A stretch of 28,737 nucleotides of DNA, taken from the NCBI GenBank assembly GCA_964359435.1, contig CAYHSY010000002.1, positions 1 through 28,737 of the forward strand, given 5' to 3'. Position 1 is the stretch's first letter. Each line of letters begins with the position of its first letter. The position numbers and the translations under genes were made by a program. This DNA is from an uncultured Candidatus Saccharibacteria bacterium. GTDB taxonomy: Bacteria > Patescibacteriota > Minisyncoccia > UBA6257 > JAUSGH01. The notes beneath the pieces were generated by a model that worked only from the letters and a program-made list of their open reading frames with translations, was not told the origin of the DNA and searched no databases. This document shows, piece after piece, positions 20,119 to 27,369 of the stretch.

Positions 20119-20148
20119 TACAGGCTAATTCGCACGAATTAGCCTGTA
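20119..20148. repeat. Hyphenated palindrome, copy 1 (14-2-14)
   Basis: TACAGGCTAATTCG-CA-CGAATTAGCCTGTA. Confidence 0.9.
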
Positions 20149-20183: not shown

Positions 20184-21362
20184 ATGATTCAATTCAAAAT
20201 CCTTAAAAAATCCCAAAAATCACGGGCTCGTCTCGGTGTCTTGAAAACGCCTCATGGTGAAATAGAAACTCCGGCTTTGGTTCCGGTTGCGACGCAGGCG
20301 ACGGTCAAGGCGCTTTCGCCGGAGGATTTATCGAAAACTAAAACGCAGTTGGTTATATCGAATACTTTTCATCTCAATTTGAAGCCAGGTGAGAAAATCG
20401 TGAAACGGCACGGCGGGCTTCATAAATTCGCCAAGCTTAACCTGCCCATTATGACCGACTCCGGCGGCTATCAGGTTTTTAGTTTGGGTTTTGGCCGCGA
20501 CCTCCAAATCGGTAAAGTCTCAAAAATAGAAAGTTATTCCCCGAGCCATGCCTACCGGCAGGCAGGCCTGTCGAGGGGACACTCTATTCTAAAAGGCACC
20601 CAGCCCAAACTTTTAAAAATCAAAGACAACGGCGTGTTGTTCCGGTCGCCCATAGACGGCCGCGAGATTTTTATCGGTCCCCGGGAATCCATAAAGATCC
20701 AGGAAGAATTGGGCGCGGACATAATCTTTGCTTTCGACGAATGCCCGCCGCCAAATGCCGATTATGAATATATGCGCAAGTCCGTCGAGACGACTGGTCG
20801 CTGGGCGCGCGAGTGCCTTCAATATAAAAAGTCCAAACAAGCTCTCTATGGCATCGTGCAAGGCGGCCGTTTTAAAGATCTGCGCGAATCCTCCGCCAAG
20901 TTTATCGGCGCGCTTCCTTTTGACGGCTTTGGTATCGGCGGAGAGTTCGGCGCGGATAAGTATCAAATGAAACGGATGCTCGCCCTCGTTGTGGATAATT
21001 TACCCGAATCCAAGCCGCGCCATTTGCTCGGCATCGGCGGCGTAGCCGATTTGCGGCCCATTATCCAATCCGGTATGGACACCTTTGACTGCACTATCCC
21101 GACGCATTACGCCCGCCACGGCATCGCTTTTACTTCATCGGGCAGAGTGGATCTCAATAAATCTGTTCATCTTAAGGATAAAAGTCCGGTTGATAAAAAA
21201 TGCGCTTGCGAAGTTTGCGCTACTCATTCCCGCGGCTACCTCTCGCACCTTATCCGTGCGCGCGAAATCACCCCGCTCCGACTCCTCACTATCCACAACC
21301 TTTTTTACTTCAACTCGTTGGTCGAAAATTTGCGCGCTCACCTCAAATCCGGTAAATTATAA
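20184..21362 (+). CDS. tgt: tRNA-guanine transglycosylase
   Basis: GEIETPALVPVAT, MTDSGGYQVFSLG, FDEC, GIVQGG, DTFDCTIPT, CACEVC..H Zn site. Confidence 0.95.
   Translation: MIQFKILKKSQKSRARLGVLKTPHGEIETPALVPVATQATVKALSPEDLSKTKTQLVISNTFHLNLKPGEKIVKRHGGLHKFAKLNLPIMTDSGGYQVFSLGFGRDLQIGKVSKIESYSPSHAYRQAGLSRGHSILKGTQPKLLKIKDNGVLFRSPIDGREIFIGPRESIKIQEELGADIIFAFDECPPPNADYEYMRKSVETTGRWARECLQYKKSKQALYGIVQGGRFKDLRESSAKFIGALPFDGFGIGGEFGADKYQMKRMLALVVDNLPESKPRHLLGIGGVADLRPIIQSGMDTFDCTIPTHYARHGIAFTSSGRVDLNKSVHLKDKSPVDKKCACEVCATHSRGYLSHLIRAREITPLRLLTIHNLFYFNSLVENLRAHLKSGKL
20538..20579. repeat. Nested palindromic element within the tgt reading frame
   Basis: CATGCCTACCGGCAGGCAGG (18/20 match to the perfect palindrome CCTGCCTGCCGGCAGGCAGG) inside TCCCC...GGGGA arms; encodes SPSHAYRQAGLSRG. 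Confidence 0.7.
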
Positions 21363-21373
21363 ACTACTCCGGC

Positions 21374-21405
21374 TTATCGGCTAATTCGCACGAATTAGCC
21401 GATAA
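21374..21405. repeat. Hyphenated palindrome, copy 2 (15-2-15)
   Basis: TTATCGGCTAATTCG-CA-CGAATTAGCCGATAA. Confidence 0.9.
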
Positions 21406-21715: not shown

Positions 21716-21745
21716 TATCGGCTAATTCGCACGAATTAGCCGATA
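21716..21745. repeat. Hyphenated palindrome, copy 3 (14-2-14)
   Basis: TATCGGCTAATTCG-CA-CGAATTAGCCGATA; 30 bp identical to copy 2. Confidence 0.9.
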
Positions 21746-21777: not shown

Positions 21778-22887
21778 ATGCCAAAAAATAATTTTGAAAA
21801 AAATTTGGTGCGTTATGACTATGATTTGCCAGAGGAGCTTATTGCTAAAGAGCCCGCTCATCCGCGCGATGCCGCGCGCCTTTTGGTCTATAACAGAAAA
21901 ACCGGCAAGGCAAAAGATGATATTTTTAGAAATATTATCCAGTATTTGCCGCCGAAATCCGTTTTGGTTTTCAATGAGACCAAGGTTATCCCGGCGCGGC
22001 TCGCGGTTAGAAAAAAATCGGGTGGCGTAGTTAGGGTATTATTTGTGGGAATCGAGGGGGGATTGATAAAAGTTTTGTCGCCGAAAAAGTTGAAAATCGG
22101 GGAGTGTTTGGCCGCATCCGTCGCTGTTTATTTTACGGTTGCAAAATCGAAAGATAAATTTTGGTTTTTGCGGCCGTCGTTTCCGGTCAAAGATGTTTAT
22201 AAAATTTTGGAAAAATACGGTGAGATGCCTATCCCGCCCTATATCAAAAATTCGCCTCTCACCGGAGTGGAATTGAAAAAAGAATATCAAACGGTTTTTG
22301 CGCGCCGGTCCGGTTCCGTCGCCGCGCCGACGGCGGCCCTGCATTTCACTAAAAATTTAATGGCGAAGATTAAAAAAGCGGGACATGAAATCGTTTTCGT
22401 CACGCTTCACGTCAATCTCGGAACTTTCTTGCCCGTAACAATCGAAAATTTGGAAACCGGAAAACTGCATGAGGAATATTATGAAATTTCTAAAACAGCG
22501 GCTCGCAAATTAAACCGGGCCAAAAAATCCGGAAGAGCCATTATCGCCGTGGGCACAACTTCGGCGAGAACTCTGGAATCTTCGCTTGGTCGGGATAAAA
22601 AAATCAAAAAACTTTCCGGTCTCACCTCGCTTTTTATCCACGAAAACCTTATACCCCTCATTCGGCCGAATGAGGGGTATAAGGAGGGATATAAGGGGGA
22701 GTTGGTTGATAGTGGAGGATTTGGGTTTGTTGATGGTTTGGTGACCAATTTTCATGTGCCGCGTTCCAGCTTGATGATGCTTGTCGCCGCGCTCATCGGC
22801 CGTCAAAAAATTTTAGAACTTTATAAGCACGCCATCAAAAACCGTTATCGCTTCTTCTCCTTCGGCGACGGGATGTTGATTTTATAA
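21778..22887 (+). CDS. queA: S-adenosylmethionine:tRNA ribosyltransferase-isomerase
   Basis: YDYDLPEELIA, LVFNETKVIPARL, MPIPPYI, YQTVFA..GSVAAPTAALHF, TLHVNLGTF, VGTTSARTLES, TNFHVPRSSL, YRFFSFGDGM. Confidence 0.96.
   Translation: MPKNNFEKNLVRYDYDLPEELIAKEPAHPRDAARLLVYNRKTGKAKDDIFRNIIQYLPPKSVLVFNETKVIPARLAVRKKSGGVVRVLFVGIEGGLIKVLSPKKLKIGECLAASVAVYFTVAKSKDKFWFLRPSFPVKDVYKILEKYGEMPIPPYIKNSPLTGVELKKEYQTVFARRSGSVAAPTAALHFTKNLMAKIKKAGHEIVFVTLHVNLGTFLPVTIENLETGKLHEEYYEISKTAARKLNRAKKSGRAIIAVGTTSARTLESSLGRDKKIKKLSGLTSLFIHENLIPLIRPNEGYKEGYKGELVDSGGFGFVDGLVTNFHVPRSSLMMLVAALIGRQKILELYKHAIKNRYRFFSFGDGMLIL
22647..22684. repeat. Perfect 38-bp palindrome within the queA reading frame
   Basis: CCTTATACCCCTCATTCGG/CCGAATGAGGGGTATAAGG, followed by a partial duplication AGGGATATAAGG. 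Confidence 0.9.
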
Positions 22888-22908: not shown

Positions 22909-23280
22909 ATGATCAGTTTTGATGAATTTGCAAAAATTGAACTACGGATCGCGAAAATCGTCGCGGCCGAGCGCGTGGAGGGATCTGATAAATTACTCAA
23001 ACTCCAAGTAGAGGCAGGCTTGCCCGCCGACCCGGTGGCGGGGGACGGCGCGGAGGGCGAGGCGGACACCGCGGTTTTGCGTCAGATTATTGCCGGCATC
23101 GGCAAAATATATGAGCCGAAAAATTTAGTCGGCCAAGAAATCGTGATTGTCGCGAATCTTGAGCCAAAAGAACTGATGGGCCTCACGAGTCATGGCATGC
23201 TTCTGGCGGCGAAAGACGAAAACGGGTTGGCACTGCTTATGCCGGATAAAAATGTGCAAGCCGGGAGTAAAATCGGTTAA
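22909..23280 (+). CDS. Stand-alone tRNA-binding OB-fold protein (MetG C-terminal/Trbp111/CsaA-like)
   Basis: FDEFAKIELRIAKI..SDKLLKLQV..RQIIAGI..VANLEPKELMGLTSHGMLLAA. Confidence 0.88.
   Translation: MISFDEFAKIELRIAKIVAAERVEGSDKLLKLQVEAGLPADPVAGDGAEGEADTAVLRQIIAGIGKIYEPKNLVGQEIVIVANLEPKELMGLTSHGMLLAAKDENGLALLMPDKNVQAGSKIG
23017..23042. repeat. Palindromic element within the tRNA-binding gene
   Basis: GGCTTGCCCGCCGACCCGGTGGCGGG; 25/26 identical to the reverse complement of 26980-27005. Confidence 0.85.
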
Positions 23281-23297
23281 TGTATTATACTTAAAAT

Positions 23298-23807
23298 ATG
23301 GACGAGAATCAGCCGGTTCCGGCGCCTTATAAGCGCCCCGATTGGCAGGAGTATTTTTTAAAAATTATGGATACCGTTGCCTTGCGCGGTAATTGCGATA
23401 GGGGGCGGGCCGCGGCGATAATTGTGCGGGATAAGCGAGTTATCGCGACGGGTTATGTGGGCGCTCCGGCGGGACTGGAAACCTGCGATGAGATTGGGCA
23501 CTTGATTAAAGTTTCTTACGATGAGCGCGGGGGAACGCATAAGAATTGCGTGAGGACTACGCACGCGGAGGCGAATGCCATCGCCCAAGCCGCGCGATAC
23601 GGCACGCCTATAGACGGCGCGGCGCTTTATTGCAAAATGACGCCGTGTCTGGATTGCACCAAACTTTTGATTAACGCGGGAATTAAAAAAGTGGTTAGCC
23701 GTAAACGTTACCACTCTGATCACGACAGTATGGCCACCCTTGTTACTTCCGGCGTGGAGGTGATCATCCTGGATAACACGCAGGAGACGTATCCCGACAT
23801 GAGGTAG
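23298..23807 (+). CDS. Cytidine/dCMP deaminase family protein (ComEB-like)
   Basis: IATGYVGAP, HAEANAI, MTPCLDC Zn-binding motifs. Confidence 0.9.
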   Translation: MDENQPVPAPYKRPDWQEYFLKIMDTVALRGNCDRGRAAAIIVRDKRVIATGYVGAPAGLETCDEIGHLIKVSYDERGGTHKNCVRTTHAEANAIAQAARYGTPIDGAALYCKMTPCLDCTKLLINAGIKKVVSRKRYHSDHDSMATLVTSGVEVIILDNTQETYPDMR

Positions 23808-23810
23808 GCC

Positions 23811-23916
23811 GTCATTGCGAGGCTCTGCGAAGCAATCTTACCTTGATGGTTATTAAAAATATTCATAAGACAATAGTGTAAGATTGCCACGCCCCGAGTA
23901 TGGGGCTCGCAATGAC
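23811..23916. repeat. 106-nt palindromic mini-element (GTCATTGCGAG...CTCGCAATGAC)
   Basis: 11-bp terminal inverted repeat; inner GCAATCTTAC/GTAAGATTGC stem; small GCCCC/GGGGC hairpin. Confidence 0.8.
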
Positions 23917-23927
23917 AAATAATTTGC

Positions 23928-24152
23928 ATGAAAAAAATTTTCGTAACCGCCAAGCCCAACTCTAAGCATCCGTCAGTCAAAGAAATGAGCCCCAGCCATT
24001 TTGTGATCTCGGTTGCGGAGCCGCCCAAAGACAACAAGGCCAACCGCGCCATCATCAAGGCCCTCGCCGCACACTTGGGCGTGCCGCAGTCGTATATAGA
24101 AATCGTCCACGGTTATTTTAGTAAAAATAAGATCATAGAAGTTGTGGATTAA
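23928..24152 (+). CDS. DUF167 (YggU-like) protein
   Basis: KIFVTAKPNSK..ISVAEPPKDNKANRAIIKALAAHLGVPQS..IVHG..SKNKIIEV. Confidence 0.88.
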   Translation: MKKIFVTAKPNSKHPSVKEMSPSHFVISVAEPPKDNKANRAIIKALAAHLGVPQSYIEIVHGYFSKNKIIEVVD

Positions 24153-24174
24153 ACGGTTTGGTATAATTAAAATA

Positions 24175-26520
24175 ATGGTTAATCTTTACCAAAAATCTCT
24201 CGGCATATTTTTATTGGTTGCCATCGCTGCTGTTGTATTGCCCGTTCAAACATTAGCACAGGGCTCAGCCCCACCCCCGTTGCCGGGCCCTGGCGGCATT
24301 GAGGGACCAGGTATTGTCAAACTTTTTTTAAATGACGTAGAGAGGGAAGTGGGAGCCGCCCTACAAAGAGGTGATATTGATAGGGCTAAAGCATGGAGGG
24401 CTTGGGAAAAAGCAGCCAAAGAATTTTTGGCCAAAACACCCTGCAGCGCCCCCTTTGTGGGCCTCACCTCTTCTTTTGAAAATTTTAAAAGGGAGTTATT
24501 AGAAGCCGTTAGAAGCGGCGACGTAAACAAGCTAAAACGATTAAACTTGTTTGAATTTCTAGAAGGTTTTAAGTATACTGATGCAGCCGAGGAAGCCAAG
24601 ATGCTCAAAGAAGAAGTTACGGGCATCATCAATGATTTACTATCAAGCGAGGGCGGTGATAAGCAGACAGCTAAAACTATTAACGAGTTGGCAAAACTAG
24701 CCGAAGAACGTTCAGCCGCACGCATTTCACAAGAAAAATTAGCAACTCAAGAAATCAGTAGAATTTCTCAACTCACTCCGGAAGAATTGGCGGCTGAGCA
24801 GGTAGAGTCAAGAAAAATTGCAGAAAGATTAGTAGCAGAGATGGCGGCCAAAGAGAAACTAGCAAGGGAATCAGCGGCCTTTGCTGAGCAACTAGCTGGG
24901 CGGGAGGCGGGAGCGGTGGGCGTCGGTAGCAGCGGTGCAACACAAACCGGGGTAGGATTGGGGGCGCGGCCAGCGGCCAGCGGCCTCGCTACCGAGGCCA
25001 CTCAAACCGGAGTTTTAGTTACGGAAAAAGCCGCGCAAAAGACGGGGGTTGGTACTGCGGCTGCTTTAGCGGAGCAAGCGGTGGTAAAGAGGGGAGCGGC
25101 GAAAATTATAATTGGGGGTTTGACTAGAGCCGGGCTGGCCGTGCTGCCGCCGGCTTTAGCGGCTTACGGAGCGGGCGATTTAACGGCCGAACTTATAGGG
25201 GCTGTTAGTGAGGGAATTGAAGGAGTGGAGGACGCGGCGCGGCAAGTTTTGGGCGAAGTCGCTAAGGCCAACGATGAGATTAATAGAGAAGTACCTCGTT
25301 ATCAAGAAGCTATCGCTAAAACCGAATCAGAGCTGGATTCTCTAGGATCTAGATATCAGGATGCGCAGAATGCGTTGGATATTGCTAATTCTAACGAACA
25401 AGCCATCTTGAACGATCCAACGGCCAGCGTTGCGGCTAAGGTAGCCGCTCAAGCCAAAGCAGGAGAAGCAGAAAGAGTAGAAGCTGGCTTAAAATCTCAA
25501 ATTGACGCGCTGGACTCCGACCTGGCAGTTTTCAAGGGTGCCTTGAAAGCCGATCAGCAAAAACAAAAAGAACTGCAAGAGGCGCTTAATATAATGCAAG
25601 AAGTATTGGGCTTACCCGAGTCGCAATTGCATCAAGTGGGAATAACGATTCCGGATAGCGCGGTTCGGGTCGCCGTAAGAAGTCGCGGAAATAATTTTTT
25701 GGTCACTGCCGATCCGAAAATACCAGTAATTTTCGATTTTGCTCAGCCGCAATGCCCCCCGCCGTTAGGGGTTGCCTTCTCTTTTGACCCTAAAACCAAA
25801 ATGGCAAGTTTTGTGGGCCCCTCGTTTTCATACGCGACAGTTGATGGGCAGACCTATGGCACCGGCGAAAAAATTCCATATAATGTTTTAAGTGGTAAAG
25901 ATGTCTATATCAACATGTTTTTGAGGGGCGAACAATTTATCAATTCTCCAGACATTACCGCCGGCCTTACTTATGTATTACCGGATACCATGCAAGAACT
26001 TTTCCCCTCTATTTACTCCGGCCCTCGCGTGACTCGGCCGAATCGCCAAGCCGTTGTTATTACCAACTACTCCAATCAAGAACTTCGTGGTGATATTAGG
26101 TTTACAGATGGTACTAATCTAAAAAATATAGTGCTTACTCCTGGTCGCAATGTGGTGGGTTCCATTCCCCGTGTCTCCGGCTCTCTGTCCGCTACCTATA
26201 CGTTTACCAACGAAAGTGGTCAGGTATTTAAGGGTAGCGTTTTGGTGCGTTCGGCCAGCGTAGCTAGTGGCGCCCGTCTGGCACCTATCCAGAAAACGTT
26301 CCCCACTATTTTTTCGTCACAAACGCCTAAATCAGTAATTACTCCAGGCGTATTGCCGACTCCCGGCTTAGTCACGCCAACATTATTTACGCGGCCTCAA
26401 ACATTGCCAACGCCTTCTATAGGAACCGTAGTGCCTTTCAAATATACACCCCCGACCTTCCAAGTTCCTTCTATCTTGTCTCCGCAGTACAATCCGCCTT
26501 CTACTATATTTACACAATAA
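24175..26520 (+). CDS. Large secreted hypothetical protein (start probably ATG 24175)
   Basis: Signal peptide ending VQTLA-Q; coiled coils flanking a Gly/Ala-rich hydrophobic segment; beta-rich domain; Pro/Thr-rich tail. Confidence 0.75.
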   Translation: MVNLYQKSLGIFLLVAIAAVVLPVQTLAQGSAPPPLPGPGGIEGPGIVKLFLNDVEREVGAALQRGDIDRAKAWRAWEKAAKEFLAKTPCSAPFVGLTSSFENFKRELLEAVRSGDVNKLKRLNLFEFLEGFKYTDAAEEAKMLKEEVTGIINDLLSSEGGDKQTAKTINELAKLAEERSAARISQEKLATQEISRISQLTPEELAAEQVESRKIAERLVAEMAAKEKLARESAAFAEQLAGREAGAVGVGSSGATQTGVGLGARPAASGLATEATQTGVLVTEKAAQKTGVGTAAALAEQAVVKRGAAKIIIGGLTRAGLAVLPPALAAYGAGDLTAELIGAVSEGIEGVEDAARQVLGEVAKANDEINREVPRYQEAIAKTESELDSLGSRYQDAQNALDIANSNEQAILNDPTASVAAKVAAQAKAGEAERVEAGLKSQIDALDSDLAVFKGALKADQQKQKELQEALNIMQEVLGLPESQLHQVGITIPDSAVRVAVRSRGNNFLVTADPKIPVIFDFAQPQCPPPLGVAFSFDPKTKMASFVGPSFSYATVDGQTYGTGEKIPYNVLSGKDVYINMFLRGEQFINSPDITAGLTYVLPDTMQELFPSIYSGPRVTRPNRQAVVITNYSNQELRGDIRFTDGTNLKNIVLTPGRNVVGSIPRVSGSLSATYTFTNESGQVFKGSVLVRSASVASGARLAPIQKTFPTIFSSQTPKSVITPGVLPTPGLVTPTLFTRPQTLPTPSIGTVVPFKYTPPTFQVPSILSPQYNPPSTIFTQ

Positions 26521-26565
26521 ACATTGATTTTGTATTGGGATTTGTTTTTCTGTATACTATACAGT

Positions 26566-27369
26566 ATGCCTAGTAGCAGAAAAAAAGAACCCAAAACTTC
26601 GTGGGGTAAGCATGCCAAATGGTATGGCGGCGTGGTAGAAGAAAAAGGCAGCTATCAGCGTGAGTTGATTCTGCCCGGGGTTTTGAAAATGTTGGATTTG
26701 AAAGCCGGTGAAGCGGTTTTGGACTTGGCCTGCGGCGAAGGGTTTTTCGCCCGCGAGTTTGGGAAAGCCGAGGCGAATGTTTTGGGCGTGGATGCGGGCG
26801 CGGGGTTGATCGCCCTGGCGCAAAAGAAATCGCCCAAGAATATCGGCTATCGCGTGGCGGACGCCACCAATCTTTCTTTTTTGAACAACGGTGTTTTTGA
26901 CGCGGTAACTATCATTCTAGCCCTTCAAAACATTGAGGACATCGCCCCGGTTTTGAAAGAAGCCCGCCGGATTTTGAAGCCCGCCACCGGGTCGGCGGGC
27001 AGGCCCTCCAGCCGGCTGGTGATAGTTCTAAACCACCCTATTTTTCGTATTCCCAAATTTTCCGGTTGGGGCTGGGACGAAGGGCAATCGCTCCAATACC
27101 GCAAGGTAAATCGTTATATGAGCGAATTAAAATTGCCGATTGAAATGCATCCGGGCGAGCGTTCGAAAGAAATCACCTGGTCTTTTCACCGGCCCATGCA
27201 AGTATATTTTAAGGCGCTCTCTGCCGCCGGCTTCGCTGTAACAGACTTGGAAGAATGGGTTTCCAATAAAAAAAGCCAGCCGGGTCCCAAAGCCAAAGCG
27301 GAAAATTTGGCTCGTGAAGAATTCCCGCTGTTTATGGCGATCAAGGCCGTACCAGTGATGAATCGATGA
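26566..27369 (+). CDS. Class I SAM-dependent methyltransferase (start probably ATG 26566)
   Basis: VLDLACGEGFF motif I, VADAT, FDAVTIILALQNI, RRILKP..VIVLNHP, SFHRP..Y. Confidence 0.88.
   Translation: MPSSRKKEPKTSWGKHAKWYGGVVEEKGSYQRELILPGVLKMLDLKAGEAVLDLACGEGFFAREFGKAEANVLGVDAGAGLIALAQKKSPKNIGYRVADATNLSFLNNGVFDAVTIILALQNIEDIAPVLKEARRILKPATGSAGRPSSRLVIVLNHPIFRIPKFSGWGWDEGQSLQYRKVNRYMSELKLPIEMHPGERSKEITWSFHRPMQVYFKALSAAGFAVTDLEEWVSNKKSQPGPKAKAENLAREEFPLFMAIKAVPVMNR
26980..27005. repeat. Palindromic element within the methyltransferase gene
   Basis: CCCGCCACCGGGTCGGCGGGCAGGCC; inverted copy of 23017-23042. Confidence 0.85.

Follow-up and report, generated by a model that had tools for sequence, protein, structure and literature searches.

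A 24-nt GC-rich hairpin, probably a small insertion element, lies in frame in two unrelated genes of an uncultured Candidatus Saccharibacteria bacterium

The sequence considered here, a 24-nt GC-rich hairpin carried in frame by two unrelated genes, once in each orientation, in an uncultured Candidatus Saccharibacteria bacterium, has its closest described counterparts among the small repeats of other bacteria. Elhai et al. 2008 reportedly described small dispersed repeats (SDR1-8) in heterocyst-forming cyanobacteria, which are 21-27-nt hairpin-forming sequences that look mobile, have no known mover and are said to be abundant and mainly intergenic. That study (Genome Res 18:1484) is cited in PMC3116915 and PMC5861425. 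Rickettsia palindromic elements (RPEs; Ogata et al. 2000, summarized in PMC10969869) are palindromic repeats that lie in frame in unrelated housekeeping genes, where they are translated and tolerated, and have no known transposase; they measure approximately 100-150 bp, fall into sequence families RPE-1 to -10, each with a conserved peptide, occur only in Rickettsia and reach dozens of copies per genome. Repetitive extragenic palindromes (REPs) and their REP-associated tyrosine transposases (RAYTs; TnpA_REP, Y1) form a further system, in which a 4-nt 5' GTAG tag stands by the palindrome and the copies are numerous and extragenic (PMC8266576, PMC3333891, PMC3116915); group 3 REPs measure approximately 20-23 nt, and Y1 HUH transposases cleave and rejoin them as single strands (PMC8266576). 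No published description of the present motif, or of palindromic insertions in Patescibacteria, was found in the literature. The window, i.e., the whole stretch of DNA analysed, is the 28,737-nt contig CAYHSY010000002.1 (C2) of assembly GCA_964359435.1, a genome of 847 kb in 87 contigs, with 48.9% G+C and 100% completeness by marker genes. Homologues of the window's genes are labelled Parcubacteria or Patescibacteria by their sources, the public runs that contain the DNA are groundwater metagenomes, and the best match in a metagenome scan was no closer than 67% identity.

The repeat probably represents two copies of a 24-nt GC-rich hairpin insertion element of non-coding origin, belonging to a non-autonomous, low-copy family. 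The sequence-only reading of the window had proposed in-frame insertion of one element into two unrelated genes, with the orientation reversed between them, and this was borne out: positions 23017-23042 on the plus strand (GGCTTGCCCGCCGACCCGGTGGCGGG) and the reverse complement of 26980-27005 (GGCCTGCCCGCCGACCCGGTGGCGGG) are identical at 25 of 26 positions, with one base different, while none of 100 dinucleotide-preserving shuffles gave such a match at ≤3 mismatches. The real unit is 24 nt long, at 23019-23042 (plus strand) and 26980-27003 (minus strand); since the junctions delimit a 24-nt insert, the extra GG of the 26-nt match is flanking sequence that agrees by coincidence. Read in the orientation of the element, the junctions are GCA GG^CTTGCC...GGCGGG^G GAC in the tRNA-binding gene and GGA GGG^CCTGCC...GGCGGG^CTT in the methyltransferase gene. 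Copy 1 has the composition CTTG-CCCGCC-GACCCGGT-GGCGGG, is read as (G)LPADPVAG and scores 36.8 bits with the family covariance model (R1); its predicted hairpin (23023-23042, plus strand) has a 6-bp stem, CCCGCC/GGCGGG, and an 8-nt loop, with the CTTG tail upstream at 23019-23022. Copy 2, CCTG-CCCGCC-GACCCGGT-GGCGGG on the minus strand, scores 39.1 bits, and the plus strand across it is read as PATGSAGR.

The host of copy 1 (22909-23280, plus strand) encodes a stand-alone tRNA-binding domain protein of 123 aa, which resembles the C-terminal domain of MetG or CsaA (PF01588, E 6e-24). The host of copy 2 (26566-27369, plus strand) encodes a class I S-adenosylmethionine-dependent methyltransferase of the Methyltransf_11/25 and related families, 267 aa from its ATG, in a frame that is open from a TTG at 26524. 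Each insert amounts to 8 codons in frame. The three nearest homologues of the tRNA-binding protein (P0122-P0124, 74-66% identical) read VEAG--------DGAEGEAD..LRQ, against VEAG, LPADPVAG and then DGAEGEADTAVLRQ here; loop length is variable in this protein group. For the methyltransferase, the corresponding segment comprises 22 residues, against 30 here, in 119 of the 120 best database homologues (all 119 others being aligned), and PATGSAGR is also missing from 11 orthologues in related genomes. Its nearest homologues (P0002 and P0003, 83% and 79% identical) read LK--------P[RS]GR, against LK[PATGSAGR]PSSRL here. Because the nearest homologues are without the inserts, each gene is taken to have gained 24 nt after the split from its nearest sampled relatives; the empty sites are established at the protein level. 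In the AlphaFold model of the tRNA-binding protein, the insert lies in a 21-residue coil (residues 36-56) between two strands, in which residues 43-53 have a predicted local distance difference test score (pLDDT) below 50. In that of the methyltransferase, it lies in a coil (residues 137-149) between a helix (126-136) and a strand (150-156), where pLDDT dips to approximately 69. Both inserts are thus predicted to lie in surface loops between secondary-structure elements, and the earlier claim that the insertion sites are loops that are shorter in homologues agrees with both the alignments and the predicted coils.

Public groundwater runs of three studies (P1-P3) were compared as assembled contigs only. 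The insert of the tRNA-binding gene is letter-identical in contigs of P1 and P3, the methyltransferase insert is reproduced by contigs of P1, and a P2 contig spans the latter to 12 bases beyond. These independent contigs show that the inserts are not an artefact of one assembly.

The unit consists of a CYTG tail, a CCCGCC stem strand, 8 loop bases and GGCGGG. It can also be described as imperfect 10-nt inverted arms, CCTGCCCGCC on the left and GGCAGGCGGG or CGGTGGCGGG on the right, with 4 variable bases between them; CCTGCCCGCC matches the reverse complement CCCGCCTGCC at 8 of 10 positions. Among 27 distinct copies gathered from 14 Patescibacteria genomes, conservation begins and ends sharply at the 24-nt borders. 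No target duplication was found in the flanks of these copies, which are unconserved apart from a G at -1 (20 of 27) and at +1 (15 of 27), set against a background of 21%. Twenty-four of the 27 lie within open frames of at least 150 codons, in both orientations and in five of the six phases, which argues for a DNA element and not a selected peptide. The two main variants, that of this genome and the AATT one, are stop-free in all six frames on inspection. As single-stranded DNA, the unit is predicted to fold at -7.3 kcal/mol, and the tail of 4 nt, stem of 6 bp and loop of 8 nt recur in every variant tested. Some variants keep the arms but have a centre of another size, which brings the whole to 20-21 nt or to 33, 36 or 39 nt; several of them are in open frames. 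A separate intergenic sequence, at C3:13386-13407, is a 22-nt GC-rich hairpin (CCTGCCCGCCGGCAGGCAGGGG) in an AT-rich spacer, which has the element's left arm and a different right half and scores 17 bits with R1.

In a search that covered one genome for each of 185,579 species, the exact 24-mer was found in only two other species, both uncultivated and with small genomes, one of them named Minisyncoccia. In the first it lies within a metallo-β-lactamase (MBL)-fold-like gene, where it is read as GPATGSAGKPAKK; in the Minisyncoccia genome it is read in a different frame and forms part of a VanX-like gene's C-terminal tail. Orthologous proteins of those two genomes are only 30-42% identical to those of this one. 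Relaxed searches yielded 2-3 and 5-6 copies in the two genomes, further hosts being a TatD-like gene (IHAR[PARLPGGG]DAY), an RsmH-like gene and an open frame of 178 codons, while two homologous pilin-like leader peptides carry copies directly before the G|FT(L/I)VEL cleavage motif. Family copies elsewhere also include one in a LeuRS-like gene, and both the CTTG and the CCTG variants occur outside this genome. A scan of the class (300 genomes) gave 21 matches, compared with 6 for the control, and 7 of the 13 genomes of one family were positive, with the 24-nt sequence CCTGCCCGCCAATTGGCAGGCGGG as the dominant variant in that family. Overall, genomes hold 1-6 canonical copies, and the family is spread over several families of one Patescibacteria class. 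True copies score at least 34.9 bits with the covariance model and are separated from everything else. The 26-mer was not found at ≤3 mismatches in 400 other genomes of the same order, nor was the 24-mer found in viral contigs. Near homologues, then, lack both inserts and copies exist in other genomes, which is the opposite of a pair of repeats unique to this window at sites with no indel, the outcome that the sequence-only reading had named as fatal to its proposal. As an observation on one of these hosts, a 36-nt same-armed variant (CCTGCCCGCC-17 nt-GCAGGCGGG) lies approximately 100 nt from the exact 24-mer of the MBL-fold-like gene, in the opposite orientation (L071 930-975, i.e., G401:C1:184938-184973).

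With respect to mechanism, one copy would have entered each host gene, in the tRNA-binding gene at a loop codon, with opposite orientations, after the split from the nearest sampled relatives. The element may move as a single-stranded hairpin, which a trans-acting enzyme would copy, or cut and join, as has been proposed for REP sequences and for the ends of IS200/IS605 elements, and we infer that the family is active. Its persistence within genes can be attributed to a length divisible by three, the lack of stops and the Gly/Pro/Ala/Arg-rich character of the peptides, which surface loops tolerate. The likeliest candidate for the mover is a Y1 HUH (RAYT-like) transposase, although its involvement must be regarded as doubtful. 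Y1_Tnp genes are present in all three genomes with the exact 24-mer (1, 7 and 2 genes), and with the REP-transposase model NF047646, for which the cut-off is 80, the Y1 protein of this genome reaches 41 bits. The sequence-only reading had advised looking for a mobilizing enzyme near the elements; the Y1 genes are indeed in the genome, but none adjoins a 24-mer. When all element loci were searched with this genome's protein, no RAYT-like gene flanked by the 24-mer was found, and only one locus has such a gene within approximately 1 kb. It is because the Y1 genes are bracketed by other palindromes and none by the 24-mer, and because the tag is not GTAG, that the HUH step is held in doubt. One such arrangement is seen at locus L091, where a 23-nt palindrome, TTTCGGAAGTC-G/C-GACTTCCGAAA, stands on either side of the single RAYT-like gene (C48:277-981, minus strand); copies lie at C48:245-267, 790-818 and 1010-1032, and the one besides the bracketing pair is in frame within the RAYT-like gene and read as FSEVRLPK.

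Several observations weigh against the interpretation as a mobile hairpin family. Only two copies are present in this genome, whether it is searched by matching at ≤6 mismatches, by short-word BLAST or with the family covariance model, for which the next best match scores 19 bits. The proposal of a mini-element family that adds peptide loops to coding sequence holds across genomes, where most copies stand in open frames, but not for its supposed abundance here. Neither an empty allele nor a new site was seen in the contigs of the public groundwater runs, in which a single joint of 120 bases with 21-base sides probably comes from other organisms. The RAYT-like genes are bracketed by perfect palindromes of their own, AT-richer and 21-25 nt long; all 27 family copies have CCTG or CTTG as the 5' tag, unlike the GTAG of REPs; and there is no gene with a consistent link to the element. 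The hairpin is only modestly more stable than shuffled sequences (z of approximately -1.9), and since its stems do not vary in any copy, covariation offers no proof of the importance of pairing.

Among the alternative explanations, the one that survives best, although it is unlikely, is that the 24-mers are the scars of a larger transposon, in which case the arms would be its ends and the centre would be junction filler. The conserved 10-nt arms, with their inverted-repeat character and with a centre of variable sequence that ranges from 4 to 20 nt, are what such footprints would leave, and the low copy number and the lack of an autonomous partner among the sequences found fit the same picture. 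However, no long arm-bounded element was found at any locus, and solo left arms in five genomes number approximately 9, close to the 5 of the control. Random filler would not make the dominant variants identical to the letter across genomes, as they are. Furthermore, we know of no bacterial transposon that leaves constant, frame-preserving scars.

Local templated mutation is a quite improbable origin. It would make one copy the donor and the other the product of a replication template switch, or of short-patch ectopic conversion across the 3.9 kb that separates the inverted sites, without any mobile element. That the genome holds just two copies, close to each other and inverted, with 2-3 nt of junction microhomology (GG/CC), is in keeping with such an event, but both sites are derived relative to the nearest relatives, so that neither can be the ancestral donor, and distant genomes have the same 24-mer in other genes, the CTTG and CCTG variants of the two copies both being encountered elsewhere. 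With two derived sites here and copies of the element in other genomes, template switching is thus largely refuted as the origin of the element; it could still have been the source of the second copy.

Quite improbable too is templated addition at DNA breaks, in which a repair or reverse-transcriptase-type enzyme would copy a conserved small RNA or DNA. It would account for letter-identical inserts in very distant genomes and for the lack of a target duplication, and the G bias at the junctions matches the element's own 3' end. Nevertheless, this marker-complete genome contains no third copy or template-like locus, no Rfam family was found across the window, and a fixed template would not easily produce the length variants. 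An explanation by chance resemblance, by convergent codon usage or by an assembly artefact is refuted, for although GC-rich islands are common in the genome (G or C makes up at least 20 of 24 bases in 877 windows, a list too unspecific to define insert families), no shuffle matched, the copies are read in different frames and strands, which peptide selection cannot explain, and independent runs from other studies reproduce the sequence.

Returning to the hairpin insertion element, two further claims of the sequence-only reading did not stand. It had proposed that the family shares an end motif, GGCRGGCAGGCC, with an insertion in tgt; GGCAGGC in the tRNA-binding gene, however, represents host E-A-G codons that insert-free relatives also encode, GGCRGGCAGGCC occurs only three times in the genome, and GGCAGGCC is no commoner than its reversed control. 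It had also linked the inserts to tRNA-related genes. The inserts in queA and tgt belong to other repeat families, and the hairpin family occurs elsewhere in TatD-, RsmH-, pilin-, LeuRS-like and other genes; no tRNA gene was found in the window. Since the nearby inserts belong to other families, in-gene hairpin inserts appear to be a general habit of the lineage that is not specific to tRNA genes.

These neighbouring inserts are of several kinds. In queA, positions 22647-22684 form a perfect 38-nt palindrome, one of five copies of the TATACCCCTCATTCGGCCGAATGAGGGGTATA family (the others at C22:11840, C63:3870, C69:1666 and C71:901), and the queA product of this genome (G000) has approximately 22 extra residues at the palindrome in comparison with the G029 orthologue. 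In a genome of the same genus, G001, the same queA site holds a different perfect palindrome (CATTCGCTTATTCGCGCGAATAAGCGAATG) together with a 9-nt tandem repeat. The core of the tgt insert (20550-20567, GCCTACCGGCAGGCAGGC) resembles another 24-nt GC-rich unit, CCCTGCCTACGGCAGGCAGGCGGG, located at C25:12911-12934 and C31:8623-8646, and this unit shares the right arm GGCAGGCGGG with the hairpin family. A palindrome beginning TA(TC/CA)GGCTAATTCGCACGAATTAGCC is present in three copies, at 20119-20148, 21375-21404 and 21716-21745, in the stretches that separate tgt, a small gene and queA. An inverted-repeat pair, GTCATTGCGAG...CTCGCAATGAC, occupies 23811-23915 in the spacer that follows the deaminase gene; the stretch 23880-23917 reaches a summed contig depth of 60-740x in four groundwater runs with many loose ends, and it is thus common to many organisms there. 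[quoted passage not shown]

If the 24-nt units move, a mobile element can be reduced to approximately two dozen bases, and bacteria with minimal genomes would steadily gain new surface loops in their essential proteins from such units. Somewhat short of an even chance, we propose that the 24-mers, together with the same-armed variants of 20-39 nt, rank among the smallest known units of mobile DNA, and that a dedicated mechanism in Patescibacteria inserts the bare hairpin into single-stranded DNA next to a G without target duplication, continually writing loops of 7-13 residues into essential proteins and spreading between distant lineages. The inserts distort alignments and are liable to be mistaken for lineage-specific functional loops, and they could act as strain markers in groundwater metagenomes. 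Identifying the mover would also inform the long-standing question of the spread of REP-like hairpins.

In comparison with the known systems, the nearby ancestral donor sequence by which template-switch (quasi-palindrome) mutation is recognized is missing here. Analogous to MITEs, the element is non-autonomous and has short inverted arms around a variable centre; unlike the MITEs of DDE transposons, it shows only the G bias at -1 and +1 in place of a target-site duplication, it is far smaller than any MITE described, and no parent insertion sequence with these ends was found. Like the Rickettsia palindromic elements, the 24-mer is found in frame in unrelated protein genes that tolerate it; it is set apart by its size of 24 nt, which is by itself incompatible with theirs, and by its 1-6 copies per genome, its occurrence in Patescibacteria and its five phases of reading. 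With REPs it shares the size class, the build, in which a short perfect stem and a loop come after a 4-nt 5' tag, and the presence of RAYT-like Y1 HUH genes in the same genomes. It differs from them in being present in few copies (two here) that are mostly intragenic, in that the Y1 genes are flanked by other palindromes, and in that no REP doublets (REPINs or BIMEs) were seen. As the cyanobacterial SDRs are said to be, it is dispersed, hairpin-forming and, at 24 nt, of their length, whereas it belongs to another phylum, is not known to share their sequences, and is low in copy number and mostly intragenic, a comparison of reported properties and not of sequences. The element is therefore likened to the Rickettsia palindromic elements in its behaviour, to a small REP in its build and to an SDR in its size, and it departs from each of them in their defining features.

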